Origin: Eledone cirrhosa
Taxonomy: Eukaryota
DNA: 64,000 nucleotides
Direction of reading: 5' to 3'
Assembly: GCA_964016885.1 (NCBI GenBank)
Contig: OZ024761.1
Span: 1,612,001 to 1,676,000, forward strand
Shown here piece after piece: positions 61,411-61,995 of the stretch (the stretch's first letter is position 1; each line of letters starts with the position of its first letter). The notes under the pieces were generated by a model, which was not told where the DNA came from, did not search any database, and worked only from the letters and a program-made list of their open reading frames with translations. The translations under genes were made by a program, and so were the position numbers.

Positions 61411-61995
61411 CATACGTACATATATATACGTGTGCATGTATGTATATATATATATACATACTACTGTACGTCTGTATACATATATGTCTGTACGTATACA
61501 TACTTATATTTAAGTAACAGCCGTACTAAGAGTGAGAAATGAAATTTCGTTTCATTTTTTCCATTTATCGTTTTCGGTGCGCCCAGCCGATTAACTCACT
61601 CGGTATGCAAATTAGCCTGCTCAGCCGTTAATATGCATAAGGAAAGTATATACTTTCAGACATTCAATCATCTGGCAGGAAGGTATACGGTGCTGACGAT
61701 AGCTAATAAGCTTGAAACTAGTACATCGTTCCTTTGTCAGTGTTGAACAAAAGGGCAACGATGGTTGCAAAACACTGTACGGCTTAATTCGGGATGTTTG
61801 TTTACAAACAAACCGAGCATTATAATAAATGTTCGGTGAATCCATACATACATATATATATGTGTGCATGTATGTATATATATACATACTACTGTACGTC
61901 TGTATACATATATGTATGTACGTGCATATACATACTTATATTTAAGTAACAGCCGTACTAAGAGTGAGAAATAAAATTCCGTTTCATTTTTTCCA
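61411..61995 (+). mobile_element. Retrozyme-like family 2: about 430-bp unit as 1.3 tandem copies
   Basis: About 61430-61563 is repeated at about 61860-61995. Octamer at 61605-12, hammerhead at 61687-61729. Confidence 0.87.

Follow-up and report, generated by a model that had tools for sequence, protein, structure and literature searches.

The DNA between positions 61411 and 61995 of the window (the whole stretch of 64,000 nucleotides that was analysed) consists of 1.35 units of a repeat with a 432-bp period and a GC content of 36.6%, and comes from a 3.0-Gb animal genome. The element is very probably a highly abundant, non-coding hammerhead tandem repeat, i.e., a non-LTR retrozyme. The account favored here, to which a probability of roughly 55% is assigned from sequence comparisons, is that of a retrozyme with an snRNA-type internal promoter of Pol II spacing, which would transcribe itself and be copied into (TA)n by a Penelope-like enzyme. 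The promoter-like layout fits the Pol II snRNA promoters of the host (U1/U2/U5) better than that of U6; judged by spacing and terminator, the element fails as a U6-type unit, and judged by its lack of a distal element and of a 3' box word, it is not a full U1/U2-type gene.

Anatomy of the element and its ribozyme

The insertion (61411-61995, + strand) belongs to retrozyme family 2, is 5'-truncated and ends in a (TA)n microsatellite (61999-62111). It starts with a TA/CA-rich self-complementary arm of the family 2 unit (61411-61512, +), which is repeated at 61843-61944, and continues with the 3' tail of the family (61536-61570, +), composed of a hairpin (61536-61553), T6 (61555-61560) and TTTATCG (61564-61570), with a second copy at 61968-61995. 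The tail is followed by ACTCAC (61594-61599, +), the octamer-containing box TATGCAAATTAG (61604-61615, +), a TCAG core (61621-61624, +) that is the putative 3' half of a PSE, and a TATA-like box (61647-61652, +) within GTATATAC (61646-61653), which lies 42 bp after the start of the octamer and 26 bp after TCAG. A predicted hairpin (61604-61639, +) overlaps the octamer box and the TCAG core. An enclosing stem (61663-61747, +; about 61663-61680 paired with 61730-61747) surrounds the ribozyme. The predicted transcription start, A61677 (+), is an A preceded by a pyrimidine, where the AGGA/UCCU extension of stem I begins, and was placed by host geometry (TATA +30, TCAG +56). The longest ATG open reading frame in the doubled family 2 unit has 82 codons' worth of residues (82 aa), and no protein is encoded.

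An earlier note, made from the sequence alone, had described a unit of about 430 bp that carries these motifs in order, from the hairpin to the GUA site of the hammerhead, and a copy that ends just after the T-run. The unit measures 432 bp, all the named motifs were located in that order, and the copy stops at TTTTTTCCA, followed by CACA(TA)n. Regarding the second family 2 copy, which the note had placed near 45860-46180, it was found at 45855-46181 (+) with 96% identity and is flanked on either side by inverted pieces (45801-45857 and 46180-46334; 45801-46334 in total); of the elements ascribed to it, the tail hairpin has been lost through the 5' inversion. Family 1 is represented by a copy with a 466-bp unit, the same layout and a box-to-TATA distance of 43 (38150-38595, +), and by a second copy at about 7250-7770 (-) with an inverted piece reaching to about 8090. 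Over the part from tail to ribozyme, families 1 and 2 align at 154 of 256 columns.

A LINE (endonuclease, RT and PHD-like finger by Pfam) at 58850-61410 (-) lies head to head with the truncated 5' end of the element, and a related copy of a common short interspersed repeat follows its (TA)n at 62112-62260; the same short repeat is inserted at the TATA of some U6 array copies (L037, L038) and at that of one retrozyme promoter (L331). A marginal tRNA match (29.9 bits) at 17859-17922 (+) is probably the tRNA-derived head of a SINE. Elsewhere in the genome, a family 2 cassette sits inside a larger 1.7-kb tandem repeat (L333-L337).

The type I hammerhead (61687-61729, +) was identified from its core letters and stems; Rfam returned no hammerhead call at either the gathering or the E-value thresholds, and its miRNA matches were dropped as low-complexity and far below the cut-off. 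Stem I pairs 61687-61692 with 61724-61729 (6 bp) and is followed by CUGACGA (CTGACGA, 61693-61699); GAAACTAGTA (61714-61723) holds the GUA site, and cleavage is predicted after A61723. Behind the core come U-U, a 4-bp stem II, GAAA and a minimal palindromic stem III (ACUAGU). Among 126 distinct family 2 hammerheads, one stem I pair is G-U in 79, U-G in 25, A-U in 12, U-A in 2 and something else in 8, and the other five pairs are standard pairs in 113-123, with the commonest standard pair retained in 107-123. Three pair types, including a two-sided change to U-G (25/126), are seen at a single stem I pair, and selection on the ribozyme is supported. The A-U versus G-U difference between copies that the note had pointed out is real and recurs in this larger set.

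The 22 monomers measured from ribozyme to ribozyme are 431-502 nt long. Folded as circles, monomers are better paired than shuffled sequences (z -3.4 to -10.7; four monomers, 25 shuffles each); the local fold of 61655-61765 is no better than shuffles (z -0.79). The window also contains hammerhead-like cores without an upstream octamer, at 6559, 7142, 13591, 18463 (-), 20999, 21221 (-), 22755 (-), 23622, 47600 and 51700, some of them in repeated pairs. Several of these may be solo pseudo-LTRs (pLTRs) of other families of Penelope-like elements (PLEs), and some may be chance occurrences.

Genomic copies, 3' ends and mobilisation

A pattern composed of the octamer box and the hammerhead core matched 24,697 times in the genome, across several families and including arrays, versus 0 matches for the reversed pattern, used as a chance control. 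The arrays reach up to 30 units (family 1, among the matches listed). In a genome search, 41 of 45 matches span at least 327 of 331 bases at 95-100% identity (40 scored of 1923 candidates). Among the top 30 family 2 loci, an inverted piece was found in 20 (on the 5' side in 19 of these), and 27 end in (TA)3 or more. The 30 copies end in two regions, 18 of them just past the tail hairpin and T-run and 12 short of this hairpin, most often where the TA-rich arm stops. Loose ends of contigs aligned to the window carry on as TA repeat behind 61568. As 5' truncation, inversions and (TA)n ends are features of Penelope-like elements, the retrozyme was likely spread by Penelope-type retrotransposons.

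Three ORFs for Penelope-type RT-endonucleases, with hammerheads of their own and situated beside (TA)n, are present in the window at 33312-35088 (+), 9987-11387 (-) and 40453-42101 (-). RT motifs, a Cys-rich linker and a GIY-YIG-like C terminus were recognized by eye, and the flanks contain hammerhead-like cores (8959, 11423, 43723) and inverted repeats. Pfam yielded no relevant family for these ORFs; their assignment is based on the motifs seen by eye and on look-alikes in the Atlas with PF26215, RVT_1 and GIY-YIG. A tblastn comparison of five pieces of the window PLEs with 160 loci found no autonomous PLE with a matching pLTR, and the matches to PLE ORFs (13 of 160 loci) have no fixed position or orientation.

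At one locus (L012:1353-1, -), the 3' end of a family 2 copy is joined by a short TA run directly to a 5'-truncated Penelope-type RT ORF in the same orientation (junction near L012:1355); the upstream part of this ORF is absent from the other side within the locus. The junction may have arisen when the PLE enzyme switched templates, or by insertion into a TA run that belonged to a PLE structure. A promoter-less U6atac copy (L255) directly follows a (TA)n run and is possibly a retrocopy placed by the same TA-targeting machinery. A scan of metagenomes gave 84 matches, of which 80 were screened; three had passable hammerhead stems and none had the family layout, and these matches were treated as chance or unrelated. 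A Helitron/DINE reading of the hairpin and T-run end was dropped in view of the tandem units, the hammerhead and the 5' inversions.

T6 is present inside 24 of 30 central family 2 units, and tandem arrays continue across it. Sequence past T6 is found in each of the 18 copies with an end near it, and in 12 of these it is the complete CC(A/G)TTTAT. Family 1, with a longest T run of 5 in both units checked, has no T6 and ends at the homologous TTTAT. Given the arrays, the position of all 18 ends behind the T-run and the absence of T6 from family 1, T6 is, as far as these copies tell, not a terminator. The tail at 61536-61570 is probably the main 3' junction or priming region, and for its conserved TTTAT the better reading is a site at which reverse transcription would be primed from a nicked (TA)n target. 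The proposal of the earlier note that selection preserves a promoter, a ribozyme and a terminator-like signal is supported for the ribozyme and for snRNA-type promoter words and is not supported for the terminator; its two families share one layout, with T6 as the module that family 1 does not have.

Promoter words in the element and in host snRNA genes

The host loci used for comparison were those of U6, U2, RNase MRP, U1, U5 and U6atac, with start sites taken from the ends of the Rfam models; interrupted or promoter-less copies (L037, L038, L044 and L045 of U6; L254-L258 of U6atac) were left out of the promoter set. All five Pol III promoter types have ATG(C/G)(A/T)AAT(T/G)AG at -76 to -78 and TATA at -30, with box-to-TATA spacings of 46, 47, 48, 47 and 47. 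The 12-letter box is identical in U6 (three types) and MRP and has one change in U6atac; it is the word found at 61604-61615 of the element and occupies -78 to -66 of the host U6, U6atac and RNase MRP promoters. None of the 12 non-redundant host U1/U2/U5 promoters has a box of this type at that position. All 12 have a YCAGT core at -55 to -58, which the TCAG of the element matches, and in 11 of them the core is 23-28 bp from TATA, a TATA-like box at about -30 being present even in the Pol II snRNA genes of this host. A distal element resembling TTACCTCCCTT was found at -257 to -288 in 9 of 12 U6/MRP/U1/U2 promoters screened; this distal word is common to host U1, U2 and U6 promoters (L031-L033, L048, L149-L154).

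In family 2, TCAG starts 16 bp after the start of the box and TATATA 26 bp after TCAG. A pattern that excluded families 1 and 2 yielded 161 additional matches, to which 40 more stretches were added; 143 sequences were clustered on the part downstream of the promoter and formed seven families (134 sequences) and nine singletons, the latter uncounted. TATA lies at +37 to +45 in 115 of the 134 copies, mostly at +42 or +43 (one at 37, one at 40), and the remaining 19 lack a TATA word. In F4 this word is found at +45, adjoining the Pol III range. No copy (0/134) has TATA at +46 to +48, and the U6 side of the U6/snRNA-style unit suggested by the note is not supported by a box-to-TATA distance of 42 versus 46-48 in the host Pol III promoters. 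When the interval is compared with the host promoters, as the note had advised, it differs from that of U6, and the TCAG-to-TATA distance of 26 falls within the Pol II range of 23-28.

YCAS is found at +16 in all seven families, which are related and do not count as independent trials. The invariance of the octamer across families was at least partly built into the search pattern; C17 and A18, which the search did not select, are also invariant in 7/7 families, with flanking blocks averaging 0.36-0.39 identity. A matrix of the Pol II PSE scores best at exactly +16 in six of the seven families, with medians of 14.9 bits in F4, 10.3 in F5 and 7.2 in F6 (background fraction 1e-5 to 5e-4); host promoters score 7.2-19.4 on this matrix (leave-one-out), and host Pol III promoters score -3.4 or lower at this place. 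The extended match is weak in family 2 (median 0.5 bits, top 1.1% of background) and also in F1 and F3; for family 1, which is the youngest, the score drops to -6.5 and the best offset is at another position.

When the promoter words alone were used as the pattern, leaving the ribozyme out, 20 of the 24 distinct loci matched had an intact hammerhead core behind the promoter, and the remaining four look like damaged members. An octamer-less search, the pattern of which required TATATA and YCAG at the family 2 spacing, gave 569 matches and no octamer-less family; the 30 loci inspected by eye comprised 21 truncation or inversion junctions, three octamers shifted by one base, four mutated octamers, one unrelated locus and one unread. 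No host gene with a hybrid of octamer box and TCAG spacing was found in the first 30 loci of 736 matches, and 15 loci gave 0 Rfam hits. Regular expressions drawn by eye from host genes found neither the distal element nor the 3' box word in the units of families 1 and 2.

For families 1 and 2, folding predicts a hairpin that includes the octamer and TCAG. The arm with which the octamer pairs lies downstream in F0 and F2, upstream in F3-F5, and is mixed in F1 and F6 (two members each); as the partner differs between families, pairing alone does not explain the fixed letters and spacing. Contig pieces that start at 61677 and 61604 (three sequencing runs of unrecorded kind) were rejected as evidence for start sites, because both starts lie exactly 30 bases before common variants (61707; 61633/61635), as bubbles in a 31-mer graph give.

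It is tentatively proposed, as a reading that is possible rather than probable, that the element carries a chimeric snRNA promoter, with the upstream box of Pol III genes and the PSE core and spacing of Pol II genes, a combination unseen in the host genes examined and kept through at least seven successive families. With it, a circular RNA of 430-470 nt could contain an entire compact promoter, attract Pol II, allow read-through of its own T-runs and restore the promoter with every insertion.

Proposed life cycle, alternatives and known systems

In the favored account, Pol II would be recruited by SNAPc, TBP and probably a POU factor and would initiate near A61677, immediately 5' of the ribozyme. 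As no 3'-box-like word was found and there is no Pol III stop, transcripts would extend into the following unit. A pair of hammerheads, probably working as a dimer because stem III is minimal and palindromic, would release a 432-nt monomer that includes the promoter sequence, and this monomer would be circularised by a host ligase; RtcB circularises other retrozymes in vitro (PMC7229834). A Penelope-type RT/GIY-YIG protein would then nick (TA)n, with priming at UUUAU directly behind the tail hairpin or, alternatively, at the TA-rich arm about 55-60 nt earlier. The circle would be copied round for one to many units, by which every insertion of more than one unit would regain a promoter upstream of a full monomer.

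The same retrozyme might instead use an ordinary Pol II promoter, with the octamer as the site of a POU activator next to TATA, without SNAPc, and with TCAG as an snRNA-promoter relic or a hairpin loop. This is considered unlikely: octamer and TATA are indeed the clearest invariant words, the PSE score is weak in families 1 and 2, the high-copy ones, and the distal element and 3' box word are absent, but C17 and A18 are invariant throughout the families at the position and distance of the host core, F4-F6 reach host PSE scores on a par with those of some host genes, and the 12-letter box is a host Pol III word longer than a bare octamer. A slightly smaller chance is given to motifs kept for RNA structure or RT recognition only, with transcripts arising by read-through from neighboring units. 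The octamer, TCAG and TATA all lie in predicted hairpins in families 1 and 2, within a well-paired circle; yet the pairing partner changes between families while letters and spacing stay constant, and RNA folding does not predict that three words should match host promoter words at host spacing.

The identity of the box with the host Pol III word (5/5), a G that precedes TATA as in U6 and MRP, the T6 inside most units and the 18 of 30 copies that end just after it would all suit a U6-type Pol III unit starting after TATA and stopping at T6. Such a unit is nevertheless improbable, given the spacing, the passage of all 18 ends beyond the T-run, the family 1 end at TTTAT without T6 and the read-through that arrays need; moreover, termination at T6 would yield an RNA without the promoter found in the copies. 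Least credible, at a few chances in a hundred at best in our judgment, is a solo pLTR of an autonomous PLE whose ORF the promoter once served. PLE pLTRs do carry minimal hammerheads and an internal promoter (PMC8557442), and retrozymes may derive from pLTRs (bioRxiv 10.64898/2026.07.22.740005), but upstream of the unit lies another unit or an inverted piece and not the end of an ORF, the few loci with PLE ORF matches have them at no fixed position or orientation, and the hammerheads of the window PLEs have no upstream octamer.

The proposed self-transcribing retrozyme with Pol II spacing bears on how strong retrozyme transcription arises, a question that the accessible text of PMC7229834 and of bioRxiv 10.64898/2026.07.22.740005 does not address. 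It is made testable here by a predicted start (A61677), three short words and the 4-5 bp by which Pol II and Pol III spacing differ. An snRNA-type promoter in a second, distant lineage would suggest that promoter capture is a recurring route to retrozyme success, and about 25,000 compact promoter-like cassettes could affect the transcription of their neighbors. As a by-product, an outline of the promoter grammar of host U6 and U1/U2/U5 was obtained, which is useful for guide-RNA expression. No published case for this lineage was found in a search of the main texts of openly accessible papers.

In its non-coding tandem unit with one type I hammerhead, GC below 45%, dispersal from monomers to long arrays, well-paired predicted circle and co-occurring PLEs, the element resembles the metazoan non-LTR retrozymes as presented in the accessible text of Cervera and de la Pena 2020 (PMC7229834). 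Its U-U mismatch at the base of stem II recalls the axolotl HHR_Amex2 and its palindromic minimal stem III recalls HHR_Amex1 of the same source, whereas its units of 431-502 bp are at or above the upper end reported there (circles of 170-400 nt). That text describes no internal promoter ('promoter' occurs twice, both times for T7) and mentions neither octopus nor cephalopods. PLEs have been proposed as mobilisers of retrozymes (PMC7229834; bioRxiv 10.64898/2026.07.22.740005). With PLEs and their non-autonomous derivatives, in so far as the accessible parts of the sources describe them (Craig et al. 2021, PMC8557442; Li, Clavereau and Pollet 2026, bioRxiv 10.64898/2026.07.22.740005), the element shares 5' truncation, partial tandems, inverted 5' pieces, a short 3' tail and the (TA)n target bias; the accessible part of the latter source contains neither 'promoter' nor molluscs (0 mentions). 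Unlike PLEs, the element lacks an ORF, and no particular pLTR was found to be related to it by sequence (PLE ORF matches in 13/160 loci, without fixed linkage).

Regarding the host promoters, PSEB of Drosophila U1/U6 occupies 30-37 in Pol II genes versus TATA at 34-41 in Pol III genes, a 4-bp shift, and class specificity resides in the 3' half of the PSE, according to the part available of Hernandez et al. 2007 (PMC1761439). The host analysed here has, as read from sequence, a similar shift of 4-5 bp and a class-specific core, in sequences that are unrelated to those of Drosophila (PMC1761439).

The only precedents found for internal promoters in hammerhead repeats, both through citing passages, are those of newts and schistosomes (PMC2220036). 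Newt satellite 2, which the element resembles, is according to the passage a tandem repeat with a hammerhead and an internal promoter of the snRNA type that is said to direct Pol II transcription; the element differs in phylum and sequence, its words are those of its own host, and its octamer box is directly adjacent to the PSE core, with the TATA-like box following (PMC2220036). The schistosome Sm-alpha satellite is likewise described in a citing passage as a hammerhead repeat with an internal promoter, though one of Pol III, whereas the geometry of the present element points to Pol II (PMC2220036). In the present element, the octamer box and the putative PSE core are direct neighbors; an octamer and a PSE are also features of the newt satellite 2 promoter.
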